From Terriglobia bacterium (lineage in GTDB: Bacteria; Acidobacteriota; Terriglobia; 20CM-2-55-15): a DNA stretch of 64,000 nucleotides. Position 1 is the stretch's first letter; each line of letters begins with the position of its first letter. Shown here piece after piece: positions 15,803 through 43,699 of the stretch. Both the position numbers and the translations under genes were made by a program. The DNA lies in assembly GCA_963664115.2 (NCBI GenBank), contig CAXWPJ010000006.1, positions 192,001-256,000 on the forward strand. The letters are read 5' to 3'. The notes under the pieces were generated by a model. The model was given only the letters and a program-made list of their open reading frames with translations. It ran no database searches and was not told where the DNA came from.

Positions 15803-15876
15803 CGGGACGTGGCGCAGCTTGGTAGCGCGCACCCTTGGGGTGGGTGAGGTCGGAGGTTCAAATCCTCTCGTCCCGA
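15803..15876 (+). tRNA. tRNA-Pro(GGG)
   Basis: cloverleaf: acceptor CGGGACG/CGTCCCG, D arm GCGC/GCGC, anticodon arm CACCC-TTGGGGT-GGGTG, T arm GGAGG-TTCAAAT-CCTCT; CCA not encoded. Confidence 0.95.
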
Positions 15877-16772: not shown

Positions 16773-16846
16773 CGGGACGTGGCTCAGTCTGGTAGAGCAC
16801 CCGGTTCGGGGCCGGGGGGTCGGAGGTTCAAATCCTCTCGTCCCGA
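16773..16846 (+). tRNA. tRNA-Pro(CGG)
   Basis: acceptor CGGGACG/CGTCCCG, D arm GCTC/GAGC, anticodon arm CCCGG-TTCGGGG-CCGGG, T loop TTCAAAT; CCA not encoded. Confidence 0.95.
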
Positions 16847-16860
16847 CTTTTAGAATTAAT

Positions 16861-28344: not shown

Positions 28345-29197
28345 GAGGAGATCCTCAGTGGTTTTCACAGCCGAAACGAACTCTCGTATTTTACTACCCG
28401 ATGCGCCTTCGAGGTCAAGGGAGTCCGCTTGTACCCTCGACCCTTTACCGAACGGTAAAGTTCTGTCGTGGTGACACTGACAGAACAATGGCGAGCGGTG
28501 GGACGACTGCCGTTCAAAGTCTGTCTTCAGCTCTCCGTTCCGAAGTTTTCCCGGTATTCCGATGAGATCCGTCGAAAGCCGACCCCGTGTCAGTGCGCGT
28601 CCGAGTCCCGCCCCGGCCAGAAATTCCACGCTTGAGCAGCGGGTTGCGGCTCCGATAGACCTCCAGAGGGGAAACCACGCTTGTCGAGCCATCTGACTCT
28701 TTAAATGCCTGATGTAAATTGGTTTAAGCCTGTGGTAAAGGGAAGGCTGCAGACCGGCGTGAGCTCGTGCGAAGCCCGGTGATTCATAGGCAATCCACCG
28801 CTATCATCGTCTTCGCCTAATACACATAAGCAAGAGTAAAGCTACGGTCGAGGTCCCGTGCCGAAGCCCCTTTTCGATCAGTGCTGTTCAGTTAAGTGTT
28901 TACGGTTCTCTGGCGGGAGCATGATTGCTTGCGAAATTGACCGTCCAGGGTGCGTCAGATGCCTACTTTATTTTCTGCTTTCCTGTCCAGTATTATTTGC
29001 CCACGCGACGCCGAAAATAGTTTGGATATAGTGACATATGACTTGACCTAAGTCCCGTCTGTGTAACAAAATAGCTCCGAGCAATACTAAATTATTGAGA
29101 CTCGATCAATGTGCCCGATCTATCGAGGATCTGAGGCGTCTCGGGTTTCAGAGATTGACCCGTTTAGGTGAGCAGGGAGTTTAGGAGGTTTTTGTCG

Positions 29198-31663
29198 ATG
29201 AAAGGGAAAGCTCTGGTCTTGGTGTTGGCATGCTGCGCCGTAGTTTTCGTCGCAACTTCGGGCCAGCAGGATTTGACGGCTGCACCACAACAATCGTCGG
29301 CAGAAACAGTGGCCGGGTACGCCCAGTTGATGGACACCTATTGCGCCGCCTGTCACAGTGGCGGGCTTGCCAACCAAACGAGCTTAGTGCCGGTGCCGCA
29401 GTTGATGGACGAAGTGGAAACCGATTTTTCGAATGTTGCCGCGGAAGCGGAAGTCTGGGAAAAGGTCATCAGAAAGCTCGGCGGACGTATGATGCCACCC
29501 CCGGGAATGCCTGCGCCCAACGACGCTGACCTGGAAGCCCTTGTGGGCTTTCTGAGCGACGAACTGGATCGTGCGGCCGCTCGGAATCCAAATCCCGGAA
29601 CCAAGGCTCTGCATCGTATCAACAGAGCGGAGTATGGAAACGCGGTTCGCGACTTGCTCGGCCTGGATATCGATGTAGCGGAATTTTTGCCTCCGGACGT
29701 CGACGCTTTCGGTTTCGATAACATTGCCGAAGTGATGGGTACGTCCCCTGCGTTGATGGACCGCTACCTCTCGACAGCGTGGAAGATAACGGGAGCGGCG
29801 ATTGGAGACGTCTCGATGAGTCCGACATTTTTCACTTCCGTGAATTCGTCCGACCTGTCTCAAAACGACCATATCGAAGGACTACCCATCGGTACCCGCG
29901 GGGGGATGTACATCGAGTACAACTTCCCGGTGGATGGCGAATACGTGATCAAGTCGGTATTGTTTGAAAACACGGTTGACGTGACGCGCGGTCTGGAGCA
30001 AGAGCACGATTTCGAGGTGACATTTGACGGCGAGCGCGTGAAACTGGTCCGCTTCGGAGGTTTCCAGGATGAGGAACCCGCCTACCTGCGACCGGCTTTG
30101 ACGGCTGCCGAAATCTATAAACGTTTCGAAACGCGGATACAGGTTGAAGCGGGTCCCCATCGAGTGGGCGTCGCTTTCCTCAAGAAGAGTTCGGCGGTCA
30201 CGCAGAACGTGCTCCAGCCATTTTTCCGGGAACATATCGATCCGATTTCGCCCGTGGGACTCCCGGCGCTTGAATCGGTCACGATTGAAGGGCCTTTCAA
30301 TATCACGGGCCCCGGAAGTTCGCCAAGCCGCCAGACGATTTTTACGTGTTATCCGAATGCGGAGACCGAAGCGGCGGCGTGTGCTCGAGACATTCTGACC
30401 TCAATAGCGCGAAAGGCATACCGTCGACCCTTGAGCCAGCAGGAAACCGACACGGTGATGGGGTTCTATCGGGCTGAGATCGATAAGGGCGCAACCTTTG
30501 ACACCTCCATCCAGACCGCCATCGCCTATATCCTGGTCAGCCCTCAGTTCCTGTTCCGTTTCGAACGGGACCCCGAAGGGGTGGAGCCGGGTTCGATTTA
30601 CCGGATCAGCGATCTGGAGATGGCCTCCCGACTGTCCTTCTTTCTGTGGAGCAGCATCCCCGACGATGAGTTGATCGATCTTGCAATGACCGGACGCCTT
30701 CAGGAGCCGGAGGTTCTTGAACAGCAGGTGCGTCGCATGCTCGTGGATGATCGTTCGGCGGCGCTGGGTGCGAATTTTGCCGGTCAGTGGCTCTATTTGA
30801 GAAACGTTAGAAGTACCTCCCCGGATGCGGACATCTTTCCTGATTTTGACGACAACCTCCGCAGATCGCTCCTGCGCGAAACCGAGATGCTCTTTGAAAG
30901 CATGGTCCGGGAAGACCGGCCGATAGTGGAGTTGCTCACCTCGGACTATACGTTCTTGAATGAGCGCCTGGCTAAACACTATGGGGTTGAGGGCATCTAC
31001 GGTGACCAGATGCGTCGCGTGCCGGTGACCCAGGAATACCGGAAGGGATTGTTGGGGCAGGGCAGCATCCAGTTGATCAATGCGAATGCCAACCGGACTA
31101 ATCCGGTGACACGTGGCAAGTATGTCCTGACAAACATCCTCGGAACCCCGCCCCCACCCCCACCGCCGAACGTCCCGGTGCTGGACGAGGAACCGGGTGT
31201 GCCACTGTCCATGCGTGAACGCATGGAACAGCACCGGTCGAACCCGGCCTGTTTCGGGTGTCATGCCTATATGGACCCGATCGGCCTTGCGCTCGAAAAC
31301 TTCGATGCGATCGGGCGCTGGCGAACCGACGACGGTGGAGTGGAGATTGATCCATCGGGCCTGATCCCTGTGTTCCGGGGGCTTGGAACCATCGATGGTC
31401 CGGTGGCGCTGCGGGATGCCATCGTGAGCCGTTCCGAACAGTTTGTCCGAACGGGTGTCGAAATGTTGATGACTTACGGCTTGGGTCGAGGGCTTGAGGC
31501 AAGTGATATGCCGATCGTCCGTTCCGTTGTCAGGGATGCGGCTAGGGAGGACTACCGGATCTCTTCATTAGTCATGGGTATCGTGAACAGTGCACCTTTT
31601 CAGATGCGCGTAGCCCAGTCCGAAGGTAACGAAGCCATTGCTGAAAACGCTGACCTTAACTAA
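29198..31663 (+). CDS. DUF1592-type (DUF1587/1595/1592/1588/1585) di-heme cytochrome c protein
   Basis: signal peptide; CAACH...WEKVIRKL..MMPPPG; HRINRAEYGNAVRDLL; ASRLSFFLWSSIPDDEL; NFAGQWL; PPPPPPNVP; CFGCH..MDPIGLALENFDAIGRWR. Confidence 0.9.
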   Translation: MKGKALVLVLACCAVVFVATSGQQDLTAAPQQSSAETVAGYAQLMDTYCAACHSGGLANQTSLVPVPQLMDEVETDFSNVAAEAEVWEKVIRKLGGRMMPPPGMPAPNDADLEALVGFLSDELDRAAARNPNPGTKALHRINRAEYGNAVRDLLGLDIDVAEFLPPDVDAFGFDNIAEVMGTSPALMDRYLSTAWKITGAAIGDVSMSPTFFTSVNSSDLSQNDHIEGLPIGTRGGMYIEYNFPVDGEYVIKSVLFENTVDVTRGLEQEHDFEVTFDGERVKLVRFGGFQDEEPAYLRPALTAAEIYKRFETRIQVEAGPHRVGVAFLKKSSAVTQNVLQPFFREHIDPISPVGLPALESVTIEGPFNITGPGSSPSRQTIFTCYPNAETEAAACARDILTSIARKAYRRPLSQQETDTVMGFYRAEIDKGATFDTSIQTAIAYILVSPQFLFRFERDPEGVEPGSIYRISDLEMASRLSFFLWSSIPDDELIDLAMTGRLQEPEVLEQQVRRMLVDDRSAALGANFAGQWLYLRNVRSTSPDADIFPDFDDNLRRSLLRETEMLFESMVREDRPIVELLTSDYTFLNERLAKHYGVEGIYGDQMRRVPVTQEYRKGLLGQGSIQLINANANRTNPVTRGKYVLTNILGTPPPPPPPNVPVLDEEPGVPLSMRERMEQHRSNPACFGCHAYMDPIGLALENFDAIGRWRTDDGGVEIDPSGLIPVFRGLGTIDGPVALRDAIVSRSEQFVRTGVEMLMTYGLGRGLEASDMPIVRSVVRDAAREDYRISSLVMGIVNSAPFQMRVAQSEGNEAIAENADLN

Positions 31664-31690
31664 CTAAGCAAGATAGAGGAGGAGTATCTA

Positions 31691-33064
31691 ATGTTCATTA
31701 CGAAGAAGCATCTTTCGCGCCGCACCTTCCTTCGCGGCATGGGTGCGACGGTAGCTCTGCCATTCCTGGGAGCCATGGTTCCGGCTCGGACGGCACTGGG
31801 ACAGACGGCTGCGGCTATACCGCACCGCTTTGGCTTCGTGTATGTCCCGATGGGGACGGTGATGAAGGAATGGATGCCTGCGCAAGTGGGTCAAGACTTC
31901 GAGTTCTCCCCCATCCTTAAATCGCTGGAGCCCTTCAGGGACAAGGTGAACGTTATATCAGGATTGCGTAATCTTGGAGCCAACGGACACTCTCCCAGCA
32001 GCGGGACTTTCATGAGTGGCGCCTTCCCGGCTCACGGGAGCACGATTCTGCTCAACACAACTGTGGATCAGGTCATCGCGCAGCAAATCGGCCAGGATAC
32101 AACCTTCCCCTCGTTGGAGTTTGCAACCGAGGATCATTCCAGTCACCTGGGCAGTTGCGCGGGAGACTTCCTGTGTTCTTACATGAGCACAGTGTCCTGG
32201 CGGACGCCCACCCAGCCGCTCCCGATGGAGATCAACCCGCGTGTCGTGTTCGAGACGATGTTCGGGGGTTCCGAGTCCACTCCTGAAGCGCGGCAGGCGC
32301 GATTGATTCAGAGCACCAGTATCTTGGATACGGTTGCTGAGAGCATCAGCGATCTGCGGCGGGATCTGGGCGCTGGCGATCAGGCTAAGCTCGCCGAATA
32401 TCTGGAAAACGTCCGCGAGATCGAGCGGCGAATTGTCCAGGGCGAACGGCAGCGCAGCGAAGCGAACCTGGAAGCACCGCCGACTCCGGTCGGTGTGCCC
32501 GAGAACTGGGAAGAACACGTCGACCTGTTGTGGGAACTGGGCGCTCTGGCTTACCAGGGAGACCTCACTCGTGTCATCACTTTCATGATGTCTGCTGAGT
32601 TGAGCACACGCAGCTACCCGCAGATCGGTGTCGCTGATGGGCATCACCCGATATCCCACAACAACTTCGTTCCGGAACAGATGGCTAAGAAGGCCAAGGT
32701 CGATGCTTACCATGTGCAACGGGTCGCGAAATTCCTGGCGCGATTGGAGTCCATTCCGGCCGGCGACGGGACGTCGCTCCTGGACAACTTCACATTGCTG
32801 TATGGAAGCGGCATGAGCAACTCCAATGCCCATGATCACGTCAACCTGCCGGTATTTGTTGTCAGCGGTAAGCTGGGCGGCAATCGCCACATCAAGGCGG
32901 GCGTTGAAGCTGAAACGCGGGACAACGAGCTTGTGCCGAAGTTCAGCACGATGACAAAGATGTCGAATCTCCATCTCGCGCTCATTCAGAGCTCGGGTTC
33001 TGAAATGGAATCCTACGGCATTGGTGAGCAAGAGAGCGATGGGGTATTCGATTTCTCCGTCTAG
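31691..33064 (+). CDS. DUF1552 domain protein
   Basis: LSRRTFLRGMGATVALPFL (twin-arginine-like), FVYVPMG, TVDQVIA, PLPMEINPRVVFE, EYLENVREIERRI, GHHPISH, LLDN..LLYGSGM. Confidence 0.9.
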   Translation: MFITKKHLSRRTFLRGMGATVALPFLGAMVPARTALGQTAAAIPHRFGFVYVPMGTVMKEWMPAQVGQDFEFSPILKSLEPFRDKVNVISGLRNLGANGHSPSSGTFMSGAFPAHGSTILLNTTVDQVIAQQIGQDTTFPSLEFATEDHSSHLGSCAGDFLCSYMSTVSWRTPTQPLPMEINPRVVFETMFGGSESTPEARQARLIQSTSILDTVAESISDLRRDLGAGDQAKLAEYLENVREIERRIVQGERQRSEANLEAPPTPVGVPENWEEHVDLLWELGALAYQGDLTRVITFMMSAELSTRSYPQIGVADGHHPISHNNFVPEQMAKKAKVDAYHVQRVAKFLARLESIPAGDGTSLLDNFTLLYGSGMSNSNAHDHVNLPVFVVSGKLGGNRHIKAGVEAETRDNELVPKFSTMTKMSNLHLALIQSSGSEMESYGIGEQESDGVFDFSV

Positions 33065-34913
33065 TCCCTGAACAAGCGTGATTGACGAGGAAATGATAGT
33101 GCAATAAGAGCGGAAGTACCCGAAATGCCCCCTCTCCGTGCGAAAAAAACCTTGAACAGATTCTTCGGAAAAGGAGGCATTTCAGATGAACGATTATACG
33201 CGCAAGAACATGAGGAACCGCAAGCGGCGAATCGAACGTCGGCTTGGGGACCGGCATTGGACGGATCAGGTAGAGCCGATGTTTTCGGCGAGCAACATTC
33301 AGTACGAGATGGGAGAGCGGACGCGGGGCACATCGGTTGGTGGTATCGGGACGATGCAACTGGTGGCGCGGCGGACCGGGCTGATCGAAGCCATCGACAA
33401 GGGCGTGCATGTGTTGAAGCGGCACCTGCCGTATCACGAGTCGGATCACGTGCTGAACATCGCCTACAACGCCTTGAGCGGAGGAACGTGCCTGGAAGAC
33501 ATCGAACTGCGGCGCAACGATGCGGTGTATCTGGATGCGCTGGGAGCGCAACGGATTCCGGATCCGACGACGGCGGGAGACTTCTGCCGGAGATTCGAGG
33601 CCGACGACGTGGAGTGTCTGATGGAGGCAACCAATCAAGTCCGGCTCGGAGTCTGGCGACAGCAACCGGCGGCGTTTTTCGAAGAAGCGGTGTTGGACGC
33701 GGACGGGACACTGGCCGAAACCACGGGGGAATGCAAGCAAGGGATGGACGTGGCCTACGACGGGACGTGGGGATATCACCCGCTGATGATCTCGCTGGCC
33801 AACACCGCCGAACCGCTGTATCTGGTCAATCGTAGCGGCAACCGGCCGTCGCATGAAGGAGCCGCGGTCCGGTTCGACCAAGCCATCGCATTGTGCCGGC
33901 ATGCGGGGTTTCGCCAGATCCTGCTGCGCGGGGACACGGACTTCAGCCAGACCCGGCATCTGGACGGATGGGACGACCAGCAGGTGGGTTTCATATTCGG
34001 GATTGACGCGATGGCGAACCTGAAGGCCCGGGCCGATGAACTGGAGCCGCGCCAGTGGAAGCGCCTGGAACGGCCCGCGAAATACGACGTGGCGACCGAA
34101 CCGCGCCAACGTCCCGACAACGTGAAGGAAGAGATCGTTCGGCAGCGCGGTTTCGACAATATCCGCTTGCAGGGTGAGGATGTGGCCGAGTTTCGGTATC
34201 GACCCGGAGCCTGCGATCGGGACTACCGTGTCGTCGTGGTGCGGAAGAATCTGTCGGTGGCCAAAGGAGAGCAGGTGTTGTTTGACGACATCCGGTACTT
34301 CTTCTACATTACCAACCGTTCGGATCCGGCCGACCAGATTGTGATGCGTGCCAATCAACGGTGCAATCAGGAGAATCTCATTGAGCAGTTGAAGAACGGC
34401 GTTCAGGCGTTGCGGATGCCGGTCGGAGATCAGACCAGCAACTGGGCCTACATGGTGATCGCGTCACTGGCCTGGACACTGAAAGCGTGGTTTGCATTGC
34501 TGCTTCCCGAAACCGGACGTTGGGGCCAAAAATATCAGGCTGAGAAGCAAACCGTGCTGCGCATGGAGTTCAAAACCTTCTTGAACGCTTTCATGCTTGT
34601 GCCGTGCCAACTCGTGCGCACCGGGCGGCGCATTCTGTTCCGGATCCTGGCCTGGAACCGGTGGTTGCCGGTCTTGTTCCGCGGGGTGGATGTGTTGCGT
34701 CAGCCTCTGCGATGTTGACCCGATCATGACTCTGAGCCCGGGCGATCGAGGTCCCGGTTTCTGTCAACCGTCCAACACCAGCGAGGCTGAACTGAAACAG
34801 ATTCAACAGAAACTCGATACCTGGAACAGGCCATCCGGGAACGGGATTCTATGCCTCGAATTCTATCGGCGCGAACTGGGCCTCGGCGGACTGGTTATGC
34901 GCTTGTTTTGGGT
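33065..34913 (+). mobile_element. IS1380 family insertion sequence
   Basis: IRs TCCCTGAACAAGCG and reverse complement ACCCAAAACAAGCG; CTAG direct repeat at 33061-33064 and 34914-34917. Confidence 0.85.
33186..34718 (+). CDS. IS1380 family DDE transposase
   Basis: LDADGT, GYHPL, LLRGDTDF, RYFFYITN, NQRCNQENLIEQLKNG. Confidence 0.88.
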   Translation: MNDYTRKNMRNRKRRIERRLGDRHWTDQVEPMFSASNIQYEMGERTRGTSVGGIGTMQLVARRTGLIEAIDKGVHVLKRHLPYHESDHVLNIAYNALSGGTCLEDIELRRNDAVYLDALGAQRIPDPTTAGDFCRRFEADDVECLMEATNQVRLGVWRQQPAAFFEEAVLDADGTLAETTGECKQGMDVAYDGTWGYHPLMISLANTAEPLYLVNRSGNRPSHEGAAVRFDQAIALCRHAGFRQILLRGDTDFSQTRHLDGWDDQQVGFIFGIDAMANLKARADELEPRQWKRLERPAKYDVATEPRQRPDNVKEEIVRQRGFDNIRLQGEDVAEFRYRPGACDRDYRVVVVRKNLSVAKGEQVLFDDIRYFFYITNRSDPADQIVMRANQRCNQENLIEQLKNGVQALRMPVGDQTSNWAYMVIASLAWTLKAWFALLLPETGRWGQKYQAEKQTVLRMEFKTFLNAFMLVPCQLVRTGRRILFRILAWNRWLPVLFRGVDVLRQPLRC

Positions 34914-34949
34914 CTAGTTAGCGTTAGTTAAGTTAAGGTCAGTGGCTTG

Positions 34950-35000
34950 GGTCTGGACCTTCTCCGATCCTCCATCGGAAGGGTTCAGACCAGCATTTTT
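34950..35000 (+). terminator. long hairpin (terminator or attenuator-like) upstream of ankyrin gene
   Basis: GGTCTGGACCTTCTCCGAT...ATCGGAAGGGTTCAGACC followed by AGCATTTTT. Confidence 0.45.
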
Positions 35001-35037
35001 AGATATTTTTTAAGGGGTAGTGAGGAGGTATTCGAGT

Positions 35038-36459
35038 ATGCGTGTCCGACAAGTGTTAGGGCTGTTGCTGGTAACGGCGCTCACAGTCACCAGCGCGACA
35101 GCCCAAATCCGGAGTAGCAACGTTGATCTTGTCCGAGCGGTTAAGGATCAGGATATGGCGACCGCCCGTGAACTAATCGCGGCGGGTGCCGACGTGACCG
35201 AACAGGACAGTGAAACGATGACGGCTCTCCACTGGGCGGCACACTGGAATGATCTGGAGATGGTGGAACTTCTTCTCAGTGAAGGTGCCGCGGCAGAGGT
35301 GAGCAACCGTTACGGTGTGACGCCACTTCACGAAGCAAGTCTCGTCGCCAACCCAGAGCTGATCCAGGTGCTCCTCCGGGCGGGTGCGCAGGCGAACACG
35401 GGCTTCGGTACCGGTGAAACTCCGGTTATGACCGCGGCTCGAACCGGTAACGTAGAGGCCGTACGCATCTTGTTGACGAATGGTGGCGGGGTAGACACTA
35501 GCGAAGAGTGGCGTGGGCAGACGCCGCTCATGTATGCGGCCAGCGAAGGCCATGCCGAGATGGTGGCATTCCTGATCGAAGAGGGTGCCAACGTCGATCA
35601 GCTTTCCAGACTGATCGAGTTCGAAGAACTGGTGAGCGGCAACGGCGGCGCCGAAGTGAATCGGCCTCCAGGCGGCTTATCATCACTGTTTTACGCAGCG
35701 CGTAGCGGTGCGGATGCGGCCGGTGCAGTCTTGATCGCGGCAGGCGCAGATATGGACGTTCAGGAAACGCTGTACGGATTATCCCCGCTGGAGGCGGCCA
35801 TCATCAATGGCCACTGGGATTTCGCAGCGATGTTGATCGAGGCCGGTGCCGACGTGGACAATGGCGCTCTCTACACGGCAATTGAATCGCGCAATACACC
35901 GGCGTACACGAATCGACCGGCGCCTCCTAGACAGGACGTGAACTACGATTCTACGGACGTGATCGAAATGCTGCTGGCAGCGGGAGCCGACCCCAGTCGC
36001 GTTCACGACCAGACTGAGATGCCCGAACGTCAGGCGCAGGGAAGAGTCAACGTTCTGGCAGGTTCGAGGCCTTTGTATAGAGCGATGCTGTCCTCCGACA
36101 TCGAGGGGATAGAGTTACTTCTGGCTCACGGCGCGAATGCTTCCGCAGGAGCCCGCGACGGTTCCACTCCTTTGATGATCGCAGCCGGAATGAGAGCCCG
36201 CGGTCGTTATGACAATGCTCTGGGACCGCAAGCTCCTGAGAGACTTGGCCTGGTGAAGTTGTTGCTTTCCAACGGCGCGAGTCTTGATGCAGCTCAAGGC
36301 CGGAGCGGTGACACTGCGGCGCACTACGCGGCTCGGGCGGGTAACGAGCATCTGCTGGACTATCTGGCAGCGATGGGCGCCGACGTGAACCTGGCAAACG
36401 AGGAAGAGCAGACTCCGCGTGCTCTGCTCGCGACTCGCCTGGCTCGCTTAGACCCTTAG
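35038..36459 (+). CDS. secreted ankyrin repeat protein (DUF1592/DUF1552 operon partner)
   Basis: signal peptide; TALHWAAH, NRYGVTPL, GETPVMTAARTG, WRGQTPLMYAA, GSTPLMIAAG, GDTAAHYAA. Confidence 0.9.
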   Translation: MRVRQVLGLLLVTALTVTSATAQIRSSNVDLVRAVKDQDMATARELIAAGADVTEQDSETMTALHWAAHWNDLEMVELLLSEGAAAEVSNRYGVTPLHEASLVANPELIQVLLRAGAQANTGFGTGETPVMTAARTGNVEAVRILLTNGGGVDTSEEWRGQTPLMYAASEGHAEMVAFLIEEGANVDQLSRLIEFEELVSGNGGAEVNRPPGGLSSLFYAARSGADAAGAVLIAAGADMDVQETLYGLSPLEAAIINGHWDFAAMLIEAGADVDNGALYTAIESRNTPAYTNRPAPPRQDVNYDSTDVIEMLLAAGADPSRVHDQTEMPERQAQGRVNVLAGSRPLYRAMLSSDIEGIELLLAHGANASAGARDGSTPLMIAAGMRARGRYDNALGPQAPERLGLVKLLLSNGASLDAAQGRSGDTAAHYAARAGNEHLLDYLAAMGADVNLANEEEQTPRALLATRLARLDP

Positions 36460-36780: not shown

Positions 36781-38165
36781 GAGTTATAACCGAATCTGGT
36801 GTTTGAGGGATTGAATAAGAGCGGCGTATCTGGTTGATTTGTTGTGACAAAACTTCAAAGCAACCATAGGAGATACGCCACTGTGAGCAAGAGTAACGTG
36901 AATGGACCGGAAGGTCGAGAAACGATTGAGGATCCAGTAACAGAACTACTACGAGTTGGGGCACAGCAACTGATCCAACGCGCAGTGGAAGCCGAATTGG
37001 CAGAGCTGCTATCCCAGCACGGTGGCCGGCGAACTGAGACAGGAAACGCCGGGGTGGTACGCAACGGTTATCTGCCGGAACGCGAACTGCAGACGGGATT
37101 GGGTCCGGTAACAGTCCAAATCCCGAAGGTCCGTGCCAAGACGGGCGAAGCTGTGACGTTCCGATCGGCCCTGGTACCACCGTACATTCGGAAGACGAAG
37201 TCGCTGGAAGCAGCGGTGCCGTGGTTGTATTTGAAAGGCGTTTCCAGCGGCGAGATGGGTGAGGCCCTAAAAGTTCTTGTCGGTCCCCAGGCGCAGGGTC
37301 TGTCGGCGAGCACGGTATCGCGGTTGAAACAGGTTTGGGGCGAACAGTACCGCCTCGGATGCGAGGAGCGTTTGGATGCAGATCGCTGGGTCTATGTCTG
37401 GGCCGACGGCATCTACAGCGGACTTCGGGCGGAACAAACCAAGTTGTGTGCATTGGTCGTGATCGGCGTGAATGAACGCGGAGAGAAGCGTTTCCTGGCG
37501 ATCGAAGACGGTGTACGGGAATCGACACAGAGTTGGCGCGAGGTCTTGTTGAAGCTGAAGTCCCGTGGGATGAATGTTCCGAAGTTGGCCATCGGTGACG
37601 GTGCGATGGGGTTCTGGGCCGCACTGGAGGAAATCTATCCCGAGACACGTCAACAACGTTGCTGGATGCACAAAGTCATGAACGTCCTCAACTGCCTGCC
37701 CAAGTCGGTCCAGGCGAAGGCGAAACAGGCCCTGCACTCGATCTGGCAGGCCGAGACGAAGGCAGACGCCGAGAAGGCATTCGACTTGTTCATTGAAACC
37801 TATGAACCGAAGTATCCGAAAGCCACACTCTGCCTGCAGAAAGACAGAGAGGAACTGCTGGCCTTTTACGACTTTCCGGCCAAGCACTGGCAGAGCATCA
37901 GAACGACGAATCCCATTGAGTCGACCTTTGCCACCATTCGACACCGAACGAAGCGATCCAGAGGTTGCCTGACACGGGATGGCATGCTGCACATGATGTT
38001 CAAACTGGGCCAGTGCGCTGAGAACAATTGGCGACGATTACGAGGATTCGATGATCTGAGCAAGGTAATCATCGGAGTGAAATTCAACGATGGTGTCGAA
38101 GCGACACAAGTCGATCAGGCCGCCGCTTGAATCAATCTCCTAAACACCACTTTTGACAATAACTC
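36781..38165 (+). mobile_element. IS256 family insertion sequence
   Basis: 34-bp imperfect IRs GAGTTAT..TGGTGTTT..GATTGA at both ends; 9-bp target duplication TCGTTTCGG (36772-36780, 38166-38174). Confidence 0.93.
36883..38130 (+). CDS. IS256 family (Mutator-like) transposase
   Basis: RNGYLPER, YLKGVSSG, YVWADGIY, AIGDGAMGF, QQRCWMHK, IRTTNPIESTF. Confidence 0.95.
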   Translation: MSKSNVNGPEGRETIEDPVTELLRVGAQQLIQRAVEAELAELLSQHGGRRTETGNAGVVRNGYLPERELQTGLGPVTVQIPKVRAKTGEAVTFRSALVPPYIRKTKSLEAAVPWLYLKGVSSGEMGEALKVLVGPQAQGLSASTVSRLKQVWGEQYRLGCEERLDADRWVYVWADGIYSGLRAEQTKLCALVVIGVNERGEKRFLAIEDGVRESTQSWREVLLKLKSRGMNVPKLAIGDGAMGFWAALEEIYPETRQQRCWMHKVMNVLNCLPKSVQAKAKQALHSIWQAETKADAEKAFDLFIETYEPKYPKATLCLQKDREELLAFYDFPAKHWQSIRTTNPIESTFATIRHRTKRSRGCLTRDGMLHMMFKLGQCAENNWRRLRGFDDLSKVIIGVKFNDGVEATQVDQAAA

Positions 38166-38567
38166 TCGTTTCGGTTTCAGGGGTCGAAGCTTCGACGCTG
38201 CAACCAGCGGCGATCTCAGGGAGAAAGCTGCAAGAAGGGACAGCTCCGGATGCTGAGGCCTTGAGGCGAGGTCAGCAAATTGTGGAAAGTGCATATGCCA
38301 TGAGTTGGATCTGGTGGAAAGCGAGCGGTTGAGCCGGGAGGACTGAGGATACATCATACAGGCGATGCTGGTGAACGGTTCCGATCTGTCGGAACGTGAA
38401 ATGCCTCTGGTCCTGGACTACTTGTCGACGGCCTTTCCTGCGCGGCCTGCGGCCGCACCTGAAGAGGATTGAATGAGAGAACGCCCGCCGAGGAGCTGAA
38501 ACTGGACTCGCTCTGCCGGGAATCCCTCGTAAGGCAGAATGGTGATGTCGAAAGGAGGGTAGTAAAA

Positions 38568-38960
38568 ATGAGACTGTCATCGGCATTTGCGCTGGCGGCG
38601 GTGCTTCTGACAATGGCAACGCTGCCATCCGGTGTGCCGCTTGCCGCGGCGCATCATTCTCAAGCCGCGGCGTTCCATATGGATCAATGGGTGGAAATTG
38701 AAGGGATTGTCCAGCGCTGGCTCTTCAGGAATCCACATCCCGTTCTTTACCTGGAAGTCATCGGAGAGAACGACGAACCCGTCACGTGGCAGATCGAGTT
38801 TGCCCCGGCGACCGTCCTGGCAAAGATGGGCTGGGACACCGAGACGTTTTTGCCGGGACAGGACATTGCCGCAAGAGGACACCCATCACGCGCTCAGGGC
38901 ACCTATGGCATGGCGGCTGGCGCTGAAATTACACGCGAAGATGGCAATCGGGTCCGCTGA
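38568..38960 (+). CDS. DUF6152-like secreted protein
   Basis: signal ending AAA|HHS; VEIEG.V..W.FRNPHP.LYL; W..E...GW; ARGHPSR. Confidence 0.78.
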   Translation: MRLSSAFALAAVLLTMATLPSGVPLAAAHHSQAAAFHMDQWVEIEGIVQRWLFRNPHPVLYLEVIGENDEPVTWQIEFAPATVLAKMGWDTETFLPGQDIAARGHPSRAQGTYGMAAGAEITREDGNRVR

Positions 38961-39069
38961 TTGAGAAACTACAACGAGCCCTCTTTGGCAGCCCTTGAGA
39001 CTTCTGCCACGGGCTGTTAGGCCTTGGGTTCCGTCCGAATTTTTCGATCCCATAGGGAGTTTCAAGAAT

Positions 39070-39924
39070 ATGAACTGCACGAGGGAAGGGTTGCTGCGAC
39101 AAAGAGTTCGAACCGCGTTGGGATTTTCGATTTTCGCCCTGCTTCTGCTGGGTTGTATGCCGATCCAGCTGTCGGCACAGCTGCCCGACGCGTCCAACGG
39201 AGTGCCGGATCTGACCGGAATCTGGTCGAGAGGTAGAAATAACTGTACGCCTAATGGCGTGACCTGCCCCTTCATCTTCAGCGAAATTCCACTGAAAGCG
39301 CGTGCGATAGGATTCATGGCCGCGTGGGACGAGGCCGCGGGACCCAAGTACGATTGTGTGCCGGCGACGTCACCGTCTGTTGTGGCGGACCCGTATTCCA
39401 TTCAGATCGAGCAACAGATAGACCGCGTCATCTTCACTTACGAGAAGGACGACATCATTCGGACAGTCTGGCTGGAGGGTCACGGACACCCGGACCCGCA
39501 ACCCTACGACTTTACAGTGCAGGGATACTCGACCGGCCGATATGAGGACGGAAACCTTGTCGTTGAGACGACGAAGTTCACCTTCGATCCGCACGGGCTG
39601 GACGACATGGCGAACGTGCCATCCTCCACGTTGAAGCGCGTCGTTGAAAGTTCCTCCACGTTGAAGTGCGTCGTTGAAAGTTATTCGTCGGATGGAGAAA
39701 ACATGAGGGCGGAGGTGGTGACAGAAGATCCCGTCTTTCTAAACGGGCCGATCCAGTTTGCCATTGAGTGGGTTCCCCAGGACGAACCCTTGATACTTCC
39801 ATATGCCTGCCTGCCAGAACTGGCGAGACAGCCGGCGCAGTTTATTCCTTCAAAATACGAAGATCCGGACATGTTCAGGGTGCGCCTTCCCGCTGCATTT
39901 CCACCGGCTGGAGAGCCCGAGTGA
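39070..39924 (+). CDS. secreted hypothetical protein (PDLTGIW type, DUF6152 neighbour)
   Basis: signal peptide; PDLTGIW, YDCVP, R.VWL.G..HP, GYSTGRYEDGNLVVET, EDPVFL, C-terminal YAC. Confidence 0.72.
   Translation: MNCTREGLLRQRVRTALGFSIFALLLLGCMPIQLSAQLPDASNGVPDLTGIWSRGRNNCTPNGVTCPFIFSEIPLKARAIGFMAAWDEAAGPKYDCVPATSPSVVADPYSIQIEQQIDRVIFTYEKDDIIRTVWLEGHGHPDPQPYDFTVQGYSTGRYEDGNLVVETTKFTFDPHGLDDMANVPSSTLKRVVESSSTLKCVVESYSSDGENMRAEVVTEDPVFLNGPIQFAIEWVPQDEPLILPYACLPELARQPAQFIPSKYEDPDMFRVRLPAAFPPAGEPE
39622..39681 (+). repeat. in-frame 30-bp tandem duplication
   Basis: TCCTCCACGTTGAAG(C/T)GCGTCGTTGAAAGT x2, encoding SSTLKRVVES/SSTLKCVVES. Confidence 0.95.
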
Positions 39925-39979
39925 GTCAAACAGAGGGTCCTGATTCTCAAATGCTGGACTATAAAAAGAGGTTAATAGC

Positions 39980-40351
39980 ATGCGATACTTTTTTCCCGGT
40001 CTGATTTTAACCGGCCTCTGTTTGTCAGCTCTTCCCGGGTTTGCCCACCACGCGACGACAGCCTTCTACCATCAGGATCAGTGGGTGGAGATCGAGGGTG
40101 TCGTCCAGCAGTGGCTCTTCAGGAATCCGCATCCCGTCCTTTACGTCCAGGCTCCTGACGCGGATGGAGAGATCCGGGTGTTTGAGATCGGTTTCGCCCC
40201 GGCAACTGTGTTGGCAAAGCGAGGGTGGAGTACGGAAACCTTTCAGGAGGGCGATGTCATTCAAGCGAGAGGGCACCCGTCCAAGGCGCCAGGGACCTAT
40301 GGGTTAAGTGGAGCGGCGATCCGTCGGGAGGATGGCACCGAAGTCCGTTAG
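39980..40351 (+). CDS. DUF6152-like secreted protein (paralog of 38568..38960)
   Basis: PGFA|HHATT; DQWVEIEGVVQQWLFRNPHPVLY; FAPATVLAK.GW..ETF; ARGHPSKAPGTYG. Confidence 0.8.
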   Translation: MRYFFPGLILTGLCLSALPGFAHHATTAFYHQDQWVEIEGVVQQWLFRNPHPVLYVQAPDADGEIRVFEIGFAPATVLAKRGWSTETFQEGDVIQARGHPSKAPGTYGLSGAAIRREDGTEVR

Positions 40352-40478: not shown

Positions 40479-41498
40479 ATGACTCGAATCAGTGGAGCCT
40501 CATTGCTGCTCGTTATAGTCGGGCTGATGGCTCAACCGGTAGAAGCCCGTCCGGAATTCTTCATGCAGTTCCAGAGTGATCCGTTTCGGAACGTGGAGCT
40601 GGATACCTGCGGGGTTTGTCACGAGAATCCGGGAGGCGGCGGTCCTCGAAACGAATTCGGTCTGACCTTCGCTGAGGCAGGATTCCAGATCACGCCGATG
40701 ATGAGGGCGAATTATCCGGACCGATTCACGGTCACAACGTTGGAAACCGGAAACACACCCACGATCTCGGAACCGAACGTTGTCTCCAAAATTTACTTGT
40801 CGGACCCGGACAATGAATTGATGGTTGTCGAGTTTCTTGCGATAGACGAGGCCAACGCTTTGCTGGAACCCACAATGCAGGTCGTGAGTCTGTTGGGCGG
40901 TGCGGTCGGGGGGGAAGATGACCAGACGCCGGAGAATTCGATGAGCTTCTTCATTACCAGTACAGGTCCCGGCGATGGGGCCAACCTGGGCGGGTTGGCC
41001 GGCGCGGACGCGCATTGCCAGTCACTTGCGGACGCCGCAGGGCATGCAGACAAGACCTGGCGCGCATACCTCAGCACGAGCTTTGATGGAGAGCCCGCCC
41101 TCAACGCAGGCGACCGCGTCGGCGGCGGCCCCTGGTATAACGCCAATGGGCTTCTCGTTGCGCAGGGCGTGCTCGACTTGCACAGTGACGGGAACCGGCT
41201 TAGTAAAATGGGCTCTCTGAATGAAAGAGGAGAAGTCGTCAACGGCAGGGGAGACGATCCCAACCGCCACGATATCCTTACAGGAACCCTGTTAAACGGT
41301 ATGGCGGCAGTCGACATGAATTGCAGCAATTGGACCAGCAATGGTGAGGGCAGCGCTCTGCTGGGTCACCATGACCGCGAAGGTGGGGGGGACAATGGTA
41401 GTTCCTGGAATTCAGCCCATGCTTCGAGAAGTTGCAGTCAGGCCGACTTGCAGGCGACCGGCGGCGACGGCCTGTTCTACTGCTTCGCTATCGACTAA
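40479..41498 (+). CDS. secreted CxxCH domain + lectin/endostatin-like domain fusion protein
   Basis: signal VEA|RPEF; CGVCH; C-terminal MSFFITS.GPG.GANLGGLAGADAHCQ..TWRAYLS..HDILTG..C.NWTS..GHHDR..WNSAH.S..CS..GGDGLFYCFA. Confidence 0.8.
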   Translation: MTRISGASLLLVIVGLMAQPVEARPEFFMQFQSDPFRNVELDTCGVCHENPGGGGPRNEFGLTFAEAGFQITPMMRANYPDRFTVTTLETGNTPTISEPNVVSKIYLSDPDNELMVVEFLAIDEANALLEPTMQVVSLLGGAVGGEDDQTPENSMSFFITSTGPGDGANLGGLAGADAHCQSLADAAGHADKTWRAYLSTSFDGEPALNAGDRVGGGPWYNANGLLVAQGVLDLHSDGNRLSKMGSLNERGEVVNGRGDDPNRHDILTGTLLNGMAAVDMNCSNWTSNGEGSALLGHHDREGGGDNGSSWNSAHASRSCSQADLQATGGDGLFYCFAID

Positions 41499-41530
41499 GC
41501 CGCTGACTCTCTGCGACAGTATTTTCTCGA

Positions 41531-41571
41531 AGAAGGTCCCTGGCCGTTGGGCAAGGGACCTTCTGTTGTTT
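41531..41571 (+). terminator. Rho-independent terminator
   Basis: AGAAGGTCCCT/AGGGACCTTCT 11-bp stem followed by GTTGTTT. Confidence 0.65.
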
Positions 41572-41645
41572 GTGGCTGGCGCTACGAGCCGAGTGCTCTG
41601 GGTCTGGTACGATTCCGAGACCGTGCATTGTGGATTCGATTTGAA

Positions 41646-41681
41646 GTCTCAAGATTGGTCTCAAGATTGGTTTCAAGAATG
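41646..41681. repeat. three 12-bp tandem repeats upstream of the LLM gene
   Basis: GTCTCAAGATTG GTCTCAAGATTG GTTTCAAGAATG. Confidence 0.75.
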
Positions 41682-41692
41682 AAGGTGACGCT

Positions 41693-42778
41693 TTGAAATT
41701 TGGATATTTCACCTTAAGCGACAACGCGTACCCGAATAATCCCCGTTCACCTGAACAGTTCATTACAGAGATTCGGGAGCAAGCGATCTACGCCGACCAA
41801 TTGGGTATGCACTCGGCATGGATTGGAGAGCATCACTTCGATTCTCTTGGAGTCAATTCGCGTCCGGGTACCTTGCTGGCCAGCATTGTCCCGGTAACGA
41901 AGAATATCCGGCTCGCGCCTGCGGTTGCCGTACTCCCATTGCACCACCCTCTCGATGTTGCGGAAGAATGGGCCACGATCGATTTGATTTCCGGTGGTCG
42001 CGTGGACTTCGCGGCGGGCCGCGGCTACGACAGGCGGGAGTATGATCCCTTCGGGGCTCCGTTTATGGAGTCCGCAGAAATATTTTCCGAGTCCATCGAT
42101 GTCATTCTGAAAGCCTGGAACTCACCCGGCCCCTGGTCGCACGAAGGAAAATACTTCCAGATACCGGAGATGCAGATCACGCCGCACCCGCTTCAGAAAC
42201 CGATTCCTTTCTTCATCGCGAGCTTCTCTGAAACCAGTGTTGATATTGCTGCCAAACGGGGCCTGAACATCATCTACGCACCGTTTGCCGCGGGGATGGT
42301 ATTCGGAGGTCTCGACCGGGCCGTAGATATATATCGGGAAAAATGCGCGAGTCACGACCGCACCGCGGGGCGGACCTTGTGCAGCTACTTTGTCCACTTC
42401 GCGGACACACCCGAAGAGGAAGAGTTTGGACGGCAGGCTCAGATGTCATACTTCAAGAACTGCGCCTTGCCTGCTTTCCCGAAGAATCCCGCGAAAATGC
42501 CGCCCACAATGCAGTACTTCATGAAGATCTGCGACATCCTCGAGAACATGCAGAAGGAAGACCTGACGGACAAATCGATTCTCATCGGTCCATCTTCGAA
42601 GGCCATCGAAACTCTTAAACGAGTCGAAGCTGCGGGAATTACCGAGGTCATCCTTTATTTCAACGTCGGCAATAAACCCCACCAGTTGGTAAAGGAGCAA
42701 ATGGCCAAGTTTATGGAAGAGGTTGCGCCCGCGTTCGAGGGGGGGACGGACACTTCAGAGTTCGGGATAAATCCCTGA
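41693..42778 (+). CDS. luciferase-like (LLM) flavin-dependent oxidoreductase
   Basis: AWIGEHHF, IRLAPAV.VLPLHHPL.VAEE.ATID.ISGGRVDF..GRGY, PHPLQKP, FMEEVAPAF. Confidence 0.92.
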   Translation: MKFGYFTLSDNAYPNNPRSPEQFITEIREQAIYADQLGMHSAWIGEHHFDSLGVNSRPGTLLASIVPVTKNIRLAPAVAVLPLHHPLDVAEEWATIDLISGGRVDFAAGRGYDRREYDPFGAPFMESAEIFSESIDVILKAWNSPGPWSHEGKYFQIPEMQITPHPLQKPIPFFIASFSETSVDIAAKRGLNIIYAPFAAGMVFGGLDRAVDIYREKCASHDRTAGRTLCSYFVHFADTPEEEEFGRQAQMSYFKNCALPAFPKNPAKMPPTMQYFMKICDILENMQKEDLTDKSILIGPSSKAIETLKRVEAAGITEVILYFNVGNKPHQLVKEQMAKFMEEVAPAFEGGTDTSEFGINP

Positions 42779-42812
42779 TACTCCAGGATCGATTTCTGAA
42801 GTGTCCGTCCCC
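42742..42812. repeat. 18-bp perfect inverted repeat (REP/MITE-like or bidirectional terminator)
   Basis: GGGGACGGACACTTCAGA (42742-42759) / TCTGAAGTGTCCGTCCCC (42795-42812), between convergent genes. Confidence 0.85.
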
Positions 42813-43699
42813 TTAGTCGATGGCGAAACAGTAGAACAATCCGTCGCCGCCGGTCGCCTGCAGGTTTTCCTGGCTGCATCCCCTGGACGGGTGGGCCGCG
42901 TTCCACTGATCGCGATCATGGTGGCCCAGCATCGCCTGACCTTCCTCACCGCCGTTGGTCCAGCTTTCACACGTTAACGAATACCCTGCGTCGGCCATGT
43001 TCAGCAGGTCCAGCAATTCCCACGGCCACGCAGTACCATTCGGGCGTGAACCGGTGAGGATGTCGTGGCGGTTGACCTCATCTCCGCCGCCGCTGACGAT
43101 TTCACCGCGCTCGTTTAACGCTGTCTCCTTCCTGAGGTTATTGCTGCTCGAATGCAGTTGCTCGATATTGTTGGAGATCATGATGCCCCGAGCGTTGTAC
43201 CAGGGGCCCGGGCCAATCCGGTCACGCGCGTCCACAGGTTCCGTCTCACTGGTGATGCTCAGGTACGCCCGCCACGTTTTGTTTCCTGCGCCCACGCCTT
43301 CCGTAAGCAACTGGCAGTGTCCGTCCGCACCTGACAGTCCCCCAGATCACCGCCCCTTCCGGGACCATTGCTGGTCAGGAAAAAGCTGAAGTTCTGAGGA
43401 AGATCTCCCAGACTCTGGGTGCCAGGGGCTGATTCTGTGGCCGCGCTGAGGAACATGTCGGGATACTCCTGGCGCAGTGCAGGAGTTATTGAATATCCCG
43501 CGATCTCGAAACCGCGACCAAAGACGTTGCGGGGTCCGCCGCCTCCAGGATCCTGATGGCAGACGCTGCAACCATCGATCCCGGGACGCCGCATCGGATC
43601 GGCCAGATAGTCATCGAGGAACTCAGGAAATGCCGAGGCGGGAAGCGAGATCGATCCAAGTAAGAGTAGCAACATGAACATTCGATTTGTCCCAATCAT
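42813..43699 (-). CDS. second CxxCH + lectin/endostatin-like fusion protein; frameshift in a G5 run (43339-43343)
   Basis: ASA|FPEF..CSVCHQDPGGGGPRN; FSFFLTSNGPGRGGDLG, and adding one G gives GLSGADGHCQLLTEG..TWRAYLS..GGDGLFYCFAID. Confidence 0.78.

Follow-up and report, generated by a model that had tools for sequence, protein, structure and literature searches.

A protein that carries a CxxCH motif at one end and an endostatin-like domain at the other raises the question of what its heme would be for and which group would complete the coordination of that heme. Such a protein is encoded by gene A, which lies in a 64,000-nucleotide stretch of Terriglobia DNA (the window). We read gene A as encoding a protein that is predicted to be exported. 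In this reading its N-terminal module, related to that of Cyc2, likely bears a single covalent heme c, with the N-terminal amine of the protein itself as the likely cap, and the protein likely serves as a single-electron carrier and accessory of the neighbouring DUF1592/DUF1552 cluster. Taken whole, we consider this reading evenly balanced between right and wrong; that the product is a periplasmic redox accessory is likely.

Gene A and its sister copy

All the parts of gene A lie in one frame:

40479..41498 (+), gene A as a whole (339 aa, intact), joining a signal peptide to a Cyc2-type heme c module, a beta-meander and an endostatin-fold domain
40479..40547 (+), predicted Sec signal peptide of 23 aa with an A-x-A end, placed by sequence and by the cleavage register across homologs
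40548..40727 (+), heme module, mature residues 1-60
40608..40622 (+), CxxCH (mature Cys21, Cys24 and His25)
40728..40895 (+), four-stranded beta-meander, mature residues 61-116
40941..41495 (+), endostatin-fold (C-type-lectin-like) domain

The heme module has an X-Pro N-terminus, followed by a helix (residues 3-9), the CxxCH, a GGGxRNxFG stretch and helices at 36-43 and 50-55. The consensus reported in the first-pass annotation (PEF..DP.R..CxxCH..GGGGPRN.FG..F..AG..ITP..R..YPD.F, together with a Cys/His-rich C-terminal domain) is present in gene A. What had been described as a divergent linker is here a folded four-stranded beta-meander (pLDDT 85-96 in the predicted structure), common to gene A and to modules fused to DUF5777 barrels, and missing from gene B. 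Module and beta-meander together were predicted with a pLDDT of 93 and a pTM of 0.83; the full-length model of gene A is poor (pLDDT 57). With module plus beta-meander as the query, Foldseek gave no match at E 0.001, and the best hit of the VIA fold search (Z 5.2) covered the beta-meander only; neither result demonstrates a new fold. A sequence search of solved structures with the module returned CxxCH-level matches only (best E 0.023), and the N-terminal part of gene A matched only unnamed clusters in the ESM Atlas, under 0.9. Promoter and terminator scans stayed at chance level and yielded no promoter, and two short contigs on gene A in one RNA run (222 and 166 nt) are too little for an expression claim.

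Regarding the C-terminal domain, its earlier assignment to an endostatin-like family is supported by structure comparison, with a Z of 10.7 against endostatin 1dy2 (rmsd 3.7 A, 156 aligned residues) and a Foldseek match to the fold at E 4.5e-4. Four Cys are conserved in the domain, which also carries a His/Asp cluster (H241, D242, H274, H275, D276 and H291 in mature numbering). Since the cluster is found in 27/27 non-fused rows, it predates the fusion, and the domain is shown to combine an endostatin fold with an ancestral His/Asp cluster. The domain would bind a metal or dock a partner, and would not ligate the heme. This genome holds 11 stand-alone paralogs of the domain. The 'lectin' label on stand-alone relatives is an automatic annotation, and the open-access literature searched gave no glycan binding for this stand-alone bacterial family.

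A convergent second copy with both parts had also been proposed, and it is present at 43699-42813 (-):

43259..43699 (-), gene B 5' ORF (146 aa), which spans the signal peptide, the heme module and the first part of the endostatin-fold domain and ends in an out-of-frame tail
43630-43451 (-), gene B heme module
43570-43556 (-), gene B CxxCH
43339..43343 (-), homopolymer of five C, the frameshift point
42813..43340 (-), remainder of the endostatin-fold domain, in the other frame

The fusion claimed for both genes is thus real and complete in gene A, and frame-shifted in gene B; the picture of two working paralogs does not hold, because one base at the C run splits gene B over two frames. Contigs from 5/5 non-seawater runs, belonging to four studies, match the window at this run with no gap; the break is therefore genuine in this lineage, and a sequencing error is ruled out as its cause. 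In 2/2 seawater runs there is one extra C and the frame is open, as it is in a congener. Gene B is a recently broken sister of gene A in this lineage. Its domain groups with three stand-alone paralogs (support 97/86 in a 75-row tree), which suggests that the fusions in A and B arose separately; an AU test with 31 of the 75 rows did not reject a single clade for both (p 0.43). Within the A clade, the three rows labelled 'stand-alone' are in fact fusions truncated at the 5' end.

Conservation of the heme module and its kinship with Cyc2

The heme module is not a chance resemblance, since it was matched in 39/61 related genomes and has invariant positions (C21, C24, H25, G30, F37 and G38 across 32 aligned modules). 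The CxxCH is conserved, as the first-pass annotation had it. As in a c-type cytochrome, the CxxCH protein is predicted to be exported and its host encodes the maturation machinery, with one CcmE match and three cytochrome c assembly-family matches. According to established chemistry, the signal peptide would be cleaved and heme very probably attached at Cys21 and Cys24, with His25 as the proximal ligand. Of the original proposal of heme c attachment, the conserved motif and the maturation genes are in place, and attachment itself is predicted.

The distance between the cleavage site and the motif is also conserved. In relatives, with the mature chain starting X-Pro, the first Cys falls at mature position 21 in 44/49 modules, at 22 in four and at 23 in one. 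All 139 scorable database modules keep the X-Pro/Cys21 register, in a set picked by similarity and biased in this way toward one register; residue -1 is A, S or G in 138 of them, and residue 1 varies (M 91, R 39, H 5, F 2, other 2). When one signal-peptidase rule, revised after its first version gave 54 modules at Cys21 vs 72 at 23, was applied to all, Cys came to mature 21 in 125/136 modules; in the control, stand-alone endostatin-like proteins under the same rule, the first motif was scattered over 19 positions (mode 12/74). The register has exceptions: homolog P0012 is without Pro2, the X-P-x-aromatic pattern is missing in 67/123 matches of the wider family, temptin-like forms included, and in two proteins a related module is repeated internally, 4-7 times, without a free N-terminus. 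Pattern-lacking members and internal repeats indicate that the module fold can exist without an amine ligand.

HHalign matched the module to the Cyc2 cytochrome domain at 97.0% (E 1.1e-10, 35 columns). The post-His stretch [NTS]x[FY]Gxx[FY]xxxG, which lay outside the pattern used to search for Cyc2 proteins, is found in 85/111 Cyc2-motif proteins, in 0/125 other CxxCH sites of this genome and in 0/555 shuffles. By these sequence comparisons, the heme module of gene A is shown to be homologous to the cytochrome domain of the Cyc2 iron oxidase, a relation that the first-pass annotation had missed. It is also shown to be portable and N-terminal: the same module occurs on DUF5777 barrels, on class I cytochromes and as stand-alone mini-proteins, and a third copy elsewhere in this genome caps a DUF5777 barrel. 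Cyc2 serves as the chief marker of iron oxidation by microbes and is without a solved structure, as stated in passages of PMC13741234. That this module occurs outside porins as well affects the interpretation of Cyc2-like hits.

The sixth ligand of the heme

Besides His25, no Met or His is invariant in the module alignments, which agrees with the initial remark that no distal Met/His is evident, and seven stand-alone modules of 60-66 residues plus two of 43 residues have no Met or second-His position in common. This lack, together with the X-Pro start and its Cys21 register, makes the N-terminal amine the likely sixth ligand. By analogy with cytochrome f, whose heme ligands are given as N-terminal Tyr1 and His25 in passages of PMC8044140, the alpha-amine of residue 1 would probably take the sixth position and make the protein a low-spin electron carrier. 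Such a ligand accounts for the variable residue 1, the near-fixed Pro2 and the fixed distance to Cys. In passages of PMC13741234, purified Cyt572 starts with Tyr-Pro directly after the cleavage site.

The first-pass annotation had hinted at an open heme site or at a ligand donated by the C-terminal domain. Neither is favoured, because the same module is found on barrels and standing alone and because its X-Pro N-terminus is fixed. If the heme were five-coordinate with an open distal face, the protein would sense or turn over a small ligand (NO, O2 or peroxide), with the endostatin domain as a targeting unit. The absence of an invariant Met or His other than His25 would suit this, as would the related internal repeats that have no free N-terminus. 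His is also the only axial ligand in the AlphaFold 3 models of Cyc2, Cyt572 and Cyc2PV-1 in PMC13741234, models that are predictions and on which the passages are silent as to signal-peptide removal. An open site leaves the fixed cleavage-site-to-Cys distance and the near-fixed Pro2 unexplained, and the alpha and beta bands of reduced Cyc2PV-1 are resolved, at 560 and 530 nm (passages of PMC8406198), which we read as six-coordinate low spin; we regard an open site as unlikely. A side chain could instead be the sixth ligand. It would come either from the module (Met51) or from the endostatin domain (Met257 or a His), which would then fold back on the heme, and binding at that domain could switch the heme. 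Met51 is found in 112/138 modules, but it is replaced by Leu in 23/138 and by Ala in gene B. A ligand from the C-terminal domain stays alive as a rival through Met257, which is enriched in fusions (43/55 fused domains) and falls outside the three commonest residues in the 27 non-fused rows; together with Gly188, present in 55/55 fused domains vs Arg in 18/27 others, it suggests a fusion-specific surface on the endostatin domain. Against such a ligand, barrel-fused and stand-alone modules have no endostatin domain, the His cluster is older than the fusion, and two fusions from another class lose the cluster and keep both CxxCH and the X-Pro register. A side-chain ligand is thus distinctly unlikely in our view.

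The amine ligand remains our preferred reading. A soluble homolog of the Cyc2 module, along with stand-alone versions of 43-66 residues, would make the sixth-ligand question testable without a membrane barrel. If the amine is indeed the ligand, studies of Cyc2 would be distorted by tags at the N-terminus or by a signal peptide left in place. More speculatively, and as a possibility we hold to be rather doubtful, the Cyc2 domain may belong to a large superfamily, as yet without a name, of portable mini-cytochromes of 43-65 residues, with a signal-peptidase-made N-terminal amine as sixth ligand. Shuffling would have placed these on porins and DUF5777 barrels, on class I cytochromes and multiheme proteins, and on archaeal surface proteins, and they would be related to the Cys-less temptin domain. 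In the fusion, the module would wire electrons to an endostatin-fold His/Asp metal site, and the bacterial "lectin" family would then be redox metalloproteins that work within the DUF1592/DUF1552 system.

Gene neighbourhood and comparison with known systems

The genes around the fusion are as follows:

29168..31663 (+), DUF1592/PSCyt-PSD cytochrome c protein, 831 aa, conserved fusion neighbour
31691..33064 (+), DUF1552 (HXXSHH) protein with a Tat-like signal, conserved neighbour
33186..34718 (+), DDE transposase inserted in the cluster
35020..36459 (+), exported ankyrin-repeat protein, conserved neighbour
36844..38130 (+), Mutator-family transposase inserted in the cluster
38469..40351 (+), DUF6152, 309-aa unknown and DUF6152 genes, directly upstream of gene A
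41693..42778 (+), luciferase-like flavin monooxygenase, PF00296, E 3e-49

The three upstream genes belong to families that are highly expanded in this genome.

Among 22 fusion loci, hand-picked from the matches in relatives' genomes and including kin that are not independent, 18 have DUF1592 and DUF1552 within 7 kb, as do 2/2 fusion loci in another class. The controls gave 0/11 for barrel-type loci, 0/11 for the stand-alone paralogs of this genome and about 1% for points drawn from it at random. With 20-32 DUF1552 copies per genome in five relatives, we estimate a background linkage of roughly 6-8% there. The cluster is missing within 7 kb at 4/22 loci, and the window itself fails this cut-off, with the cluster 7.5-8.9 kb from gene A and two transposases between. 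According to these results, DUF1592, DUF1552 and ankyrin genes accompany the fusion in two classes, a context overlooked at first. Passages of PMC5615132 give DUF1592 and DUF1552 as families of unknown function, and no paper treating both together was found in the open-access literature searched. The fusion would quite probably exchange electrons with this neighbouring periplasmic cytochrome system. The linkage offers a lead from gene context, the first in this analysis, on two abundant groups: the endostatin-like proteins that stand alone in bacteria and the DUF1592/DUF1552 clusters.

One could argue that the fusion is instead the soluble partner of a DUF5777 cytochrome-barrel, in a Cyc2-like outer-membrane electron route for metal oxidation or reduction, and does not serve the DUF1592 cluster. 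In this genome, as in many relatives, the same module and beta-meander do precede a DUF5777 barrel, and Cyc2 is itself a cytochrome-barrel fusion (PMC8406198). But neither the fusion gene nor the DUF1592 cluster lies in the stretch fetched at any of the 11 barrel-type loci, barrel-type modules occur in lineages where the genomes searched contained no fusion, and the defining Cyc2 motif is missing from fusion and barrel protein alike, so we find this partnership quite improbable. The flavin monooxygenase between genes A and B is confirmed by its PF00296 match, and it follows gene A in all three congeners with the locus read. A functional tie to the gene pair is nevertheless highly improbable: the enzyme is found in 3/22 fusion loci only, all of one genus, no gene B was observed at the locus in 2/3 congeners, and the monooxygenase sequence shows no signal peptide, unlike the fusion, for which export is predicted. 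The monooxygenase is incidental to the fusion, which we place with the DUF1592/DUF1552 cluster.

The fusion has no name in Pfam, NCBIfam or the open-access literature searched, and the architecture is as unrecognised as first stated. That literature yielded nothing describing the gene A fusion or an amine ligand in Cyc2, and no paper on bacterial endostatin-like proteins with cytochrome c in Acidobacteria. What is new here is a variant of the Cyc2-type module joined to an endostatin-fold domain. The C-terminal domain shares 65-72% identity with stand-alone bacterial proteins, some of which carry the label "lectin". It falls below the cut-offs of DUF1554 (PF07588, 22.2 vs 27.5 bits), Endostatin (PF06482, 11.7 vs 29.4) and LenA/LenB of Leptospira (NF047482, 15.9 vs 300), and unlike all of these proteins it is fused to a heme module. 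Temptin_C (PF24784) shows a weak recurring match over H..GGGxRNxFGxxF (E 0.009-0.3), and bacterial CxxCH forms and one Cys-less form pass its cut-off; gene A, missing the DSDGDG segment, scores 15.8 bits vs 27. DUF5777 barrel proteins, on which no paper was found in the open-access literature searched, have the same module, beta-meander and register, but an outer-membrane barrel in place of the endostatin domain and another gene neighbourhood.

With cytochrome f the module shares the place of the CxxCH His, mature residue 25, and a proposed sixth ligand in the processed N-terminus; it differs in being predicted as three short helices, whereas cytochrome f is mainly beta (passages of PMC7908018). 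PF16639 (Apocytochr_F_N) had no match in this genome and did match in a control genome, and the fold searches, which barely covered module residues 1-60, list no cytochrome f. The proposed relation is one of functional analogy, not membership. The fused cytochrome-porins Cyc2 and Cyt572 (Keffer et al. 2021, PMC8406198; passages of the review PMC13741234) come closest in layout: a small monoheme module with a single CXXCH forms a short N-terminal domain right after the signal peptide, the mature chain starts X-Pro, and the CxxCH is followed by [NT]xFGxxFxxxG[YF], with no distal Met/His. In gene A, however, Cys is at mature 21 instead of 12, GGGPRN (GGGxRN) stands where Cyc2 has PXL after CXXCH, and the Cyc2 motif AXPXFAR[QK][TY] is absent, A-X-P-X-F being there but continuing differently, 20 residues ahead of the Cys. 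Finally, Cyc2 has a 16-stranded porin and a length of at least 365 aa, whereas gene A, of 339 aa, has a soluble endostatin-fold domain and, unlike Cyc2, is linked to DUF1592/DUF1552 genes.

Gene pair and the break in gene B

The described architecture of gene A, with a signal peptide, a CxxCH module and a Cys/His-rich C-terminal domain in one ORF, was confirmed. Gene B, convergent to A, does encode the same parts, as the first-pass annotation had it for a second paralog, but they are spread over two frames.

40479-41498, plus strand: gene A, intact ORF of 339 aa
3' of gene A: luciferase-like monooxygenase (PF00296, E 3e-49)
43339-43343: frame switch in gene B, at a run of five C

We examined this site in eight of the 23 listed sequencing runs. 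In five, from four studies (X1, X3, X5, X6 and X12), contigs span the break with no gap or difference; one of these five may be the assembly's source. Two seawater runs, X13 and X14 (depth 10 and 3), show one extra C, and the eighth, an RNA run, has no coverage there. The break thus splits the runs into five non-seawater ones with a broken gene B and two seawater ones with an open one. Gene order is unchanged in a congener, where B is intact and encodes 295 aa, and the database protein P0261, from elsewhere, is an intact B-type protein. Because of these intact forms and the five agreeing runs, B is a real gene type, broken in the window's lineage, either at a slippage-prone tract or by recent gene loss in one lineage. 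The 146-aa product would still contain the complete heme module.

A portable module and its endostatin-fold partner

The module is portable. The window's genome holds a third copy, of an architecture common across the phylum:

L001:7054-8286 (G000:C12), minus strand: module plus DUF5777 beta-barrel

It also has 11 stand-alone copies of the endostatin-like domain, along with one match to CcmE and three to the cytochrome c assembly family. The host is probably an acidobacteriote: a barrel protein from another genome in its class shares 65% identity with a record labelled Terriglobia, and named homologs carry the label Acidobacteria. The module was matched in 39 of 61 related genomes (29/34 within the family) and in 7 of 161 from a phylum-wide draw. 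Its partners in relatives are DUF5777 barrels or the endostatin-like domain, the latter fusion recurring in two genomes from another class. Among 239 database proteins collected, 63 join it to a barrel, 37 to the endostatin-like domain and 42, many of them fragments, to neither in recognisable form. One fusion copy (L045:2382-3059, genome G016), with CxxCQ replacing CxxCH and a truncated C-terminal domain, is likely decaying.

In a GTDB pattern scan (at least 120 loci) the core motif turned up in archaea and across many bacterial phyla; among the matches listed, it stands ahead of barrel-like domains of ~330 aa, of temptin-like segments or of six-heme proteins, or forms 43-residue stand-alone proteins. 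A 50%-representative library gave 516 matches, and the best 150 of these include 125 with a signal-like stretch upstream, 77-84-aa stand-alone modules, fusions to a class I cytochrome and two internal-repeat proteins. The stand-alone modules, predicted to be c-type cytochromes of very small size, would lend themselves well to tests:

Loci L062:2468-2596 and L096:2468-2596; proteins P0310, P0312, P0319, P0321, P0326, P0333 and P0350: stand-alone modules, 43 to 66 mature residues

The six-heme proteins (~830 aa; loci L052, L074, L076, L084, L095, L102, L118 and L123) carry the module at their start, with a T9SS C-terminal domain in the one from L052. In P0309, P0324, P0335, P0381 and L322 the module is joined to another cytochrome c domain, which is class I-like. 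A temptin-like CxxCH module is repeated internally, 4-7 times in tandem, in P0314 and P0346, and most of these repeats lack a free N-terminus. The H..GGGxRNxFG core is common to the module and Temptin_C-type proteins (P0338; L055, L061, L065, L114). Bacterial and archaeal ones keep CxxCH, and P0338 keeps X-Pro and the His with no Cys, hinting that temptin domains derive from the heme module.

The model of mature residues 1-116 (101 aligned rows; pLDDT 93, pTM 0.83) presents three short helices round CxxCH followed by a four-stranded beta-meander; fold searches, which barely covered the heme part, matched no solved structure to it. From the poor full-length model (pLDDT 57), the C-terminal domain matched endostatin by Foldseek (E 4.5e-4) and structure alignment (Z 10.7, rmsd 3.7 A, 156 residues), and a profile comparison gave E 0.002. 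In the profile alignment, two of the domain's four conserved cysteines fall on cysteines of endostatin, so we read them as putative disulfides. H241, H274, H275, D276 and H291 occur in 27/27 non-fused rows and in 35-50 of the 55 fused ones, but the two fusions of another class have lost them. These residues are older than the fusion and not required for the heme; they may form a metal or ligand site. In the tree, A-type domains form one well-supported clade and the B domain clusters with stand-alone paralogs (support 97/86); a single origin of both is compatible with the AU test (p 0.43). As first supposed, the module-endostatin architecture is unrecognised: it has no named family in Pfam or NCBIfam and was not found in the open-access literature searched.

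The sixth heme ligand

The first-pass annotation saw no conserved distal Met/His, and this held: besides His25, no Met or His is invariant in the modules. The N-terminus is fixed, with X-Pro right behind an A-x-A-type cleavage site. Of 49 modules from relatives, 44 have the Cys at mature position 21, four at 22 and one at 23, and 139/139 scorable database modules have X-Pro with Cys at 21. A single cleavage rule, whose no-Pro-at-minus-2 clause was added after a first version divided between 21 and 23, placed it at 21 in 125/136 modules, with stand-alone domains scattered. Residue 1 of database modules varies (Met, Arg, His, Phe, others); a position that stays put while its side chain changes points to a ligand from the backbone. 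We favor, with moderate confidence, the N-terminal amine as the sixth ligand; Pro2 would set the cleavage site and resist trimming.

Against the amine, Pro2 is missing in one homolog and often in temptin-like relatives, 67/123 broad matches miss the X-P-x-aromatic pattern used, and internal repeats have no free N-terminus. A side chain is the alternative, with Met51 (112/138 modules) or Met257 (43/55 fused C-terminal domains) as candidates. In one relative, Gln replaces His25 itself.

Alpha/beta bands at 560/530 nm are a sign of six-coordination. Such bands are described for reduced Cyc2PV-1 (PMC8406198, available part). The N-terminal amine has a precedent in cytochrome f, whose heme ligands are N-terminal Tyr1 and His25 (PMC8044140). 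Purified Cyt572 starts Tyr-Pro, and His is the sole axial ligand in the AlphaFold 3 models of three proteins from the Cyc2 family (both PMC13741234). In the portions available of the other sources, His16 is the one ligand named for an earlier model of Cyc2 (10.1101/2021.03.22.436458), and 10.64898/2026.01.22.701106 and PMC7908018 contain nothing further on ligation.

Gene neighborhood and relation to Cyc2

The flavin monooxygenase bracketed by the pair lies within 7 kb in 3/22 fusion loci, all congeners. Of these 22 loci, which were picked by architecture among module-search genomes and, where related, are not independent, 18 have DUF1592 and DUF1552 inside the 7-kb range and 19 have an ankyrin gene there. 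In the window:

29168-36459: DUF1592-DUF1552-ankyrin cluster, stretched by two transposases
33186-34718 and 36844-38130: transposase genes interrupting the DUF1592-DUF1552-ankyrin-fusion cluster

At both fusions of another class, DUF1592 lies ~1 kb away in the same orientation, and DUF1552 and ankyrin genes come farther out. The remaining one of the 23 loci examined, barrel-type, lacks all three genes, as do 11/11 barrel-type loci. DUF1592 and DUF1552 are near 0/11 stand-alone paralogs in the window's genome and ~1% of random points; five relatives have 20-32 DUF1552 copies each, for an estimated chance background of 6-8%. DUF1592 proteins contain cytochrome c domains, and their function is given as unknown in the available part of PMC5615132.

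For window 38469-40351, genome G000 has ~88 DUF6152-like loci and 44 similar to a 309-aa unknown gene; with the 11 stand-alone endostatin-like paralogs, these are strong expansions of unknown exported proteins. Two tRNA-Pro genes (ggg, 15803-15876; cgg, 16773-16847) lie ~1 kb apart.

A profile of 56 complete Cyc2-motif proteins, collected by upstream motif and CxxCH only, matched the window-family module at 97.0% (E 1.1e-10). The post-His stretch, independent of that search, fits one pattern in 85/111 Cyc2-motif proteins, 0/125 other CxxCH sites in the genome and 0/555 shuffles; its HMM scored at least 5 bits in 69/111, 0/125 and 3/555, respectively. Judged by sequence, the module is a homolog of the Cyc2 cytochrome domain. 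We give even chances to an exported soluble Cyc2-type monoheme electron carrier that likely has the N-terminal amine as a ligand, is joined to a binding domain of endostatin fold and serves the DUF1592/DUF1552 system. Cyc2 is defined by AXPXFAR[QK][TY], CXXCH, PXL and a porin (Keffer et al., PMC8406198, available part). The window proteins have neither the motif nor a porin and are therefore not Cyc2, whereas the third copy, also without the motif, has a Cyc2-like cytochrome-barrel architecture.
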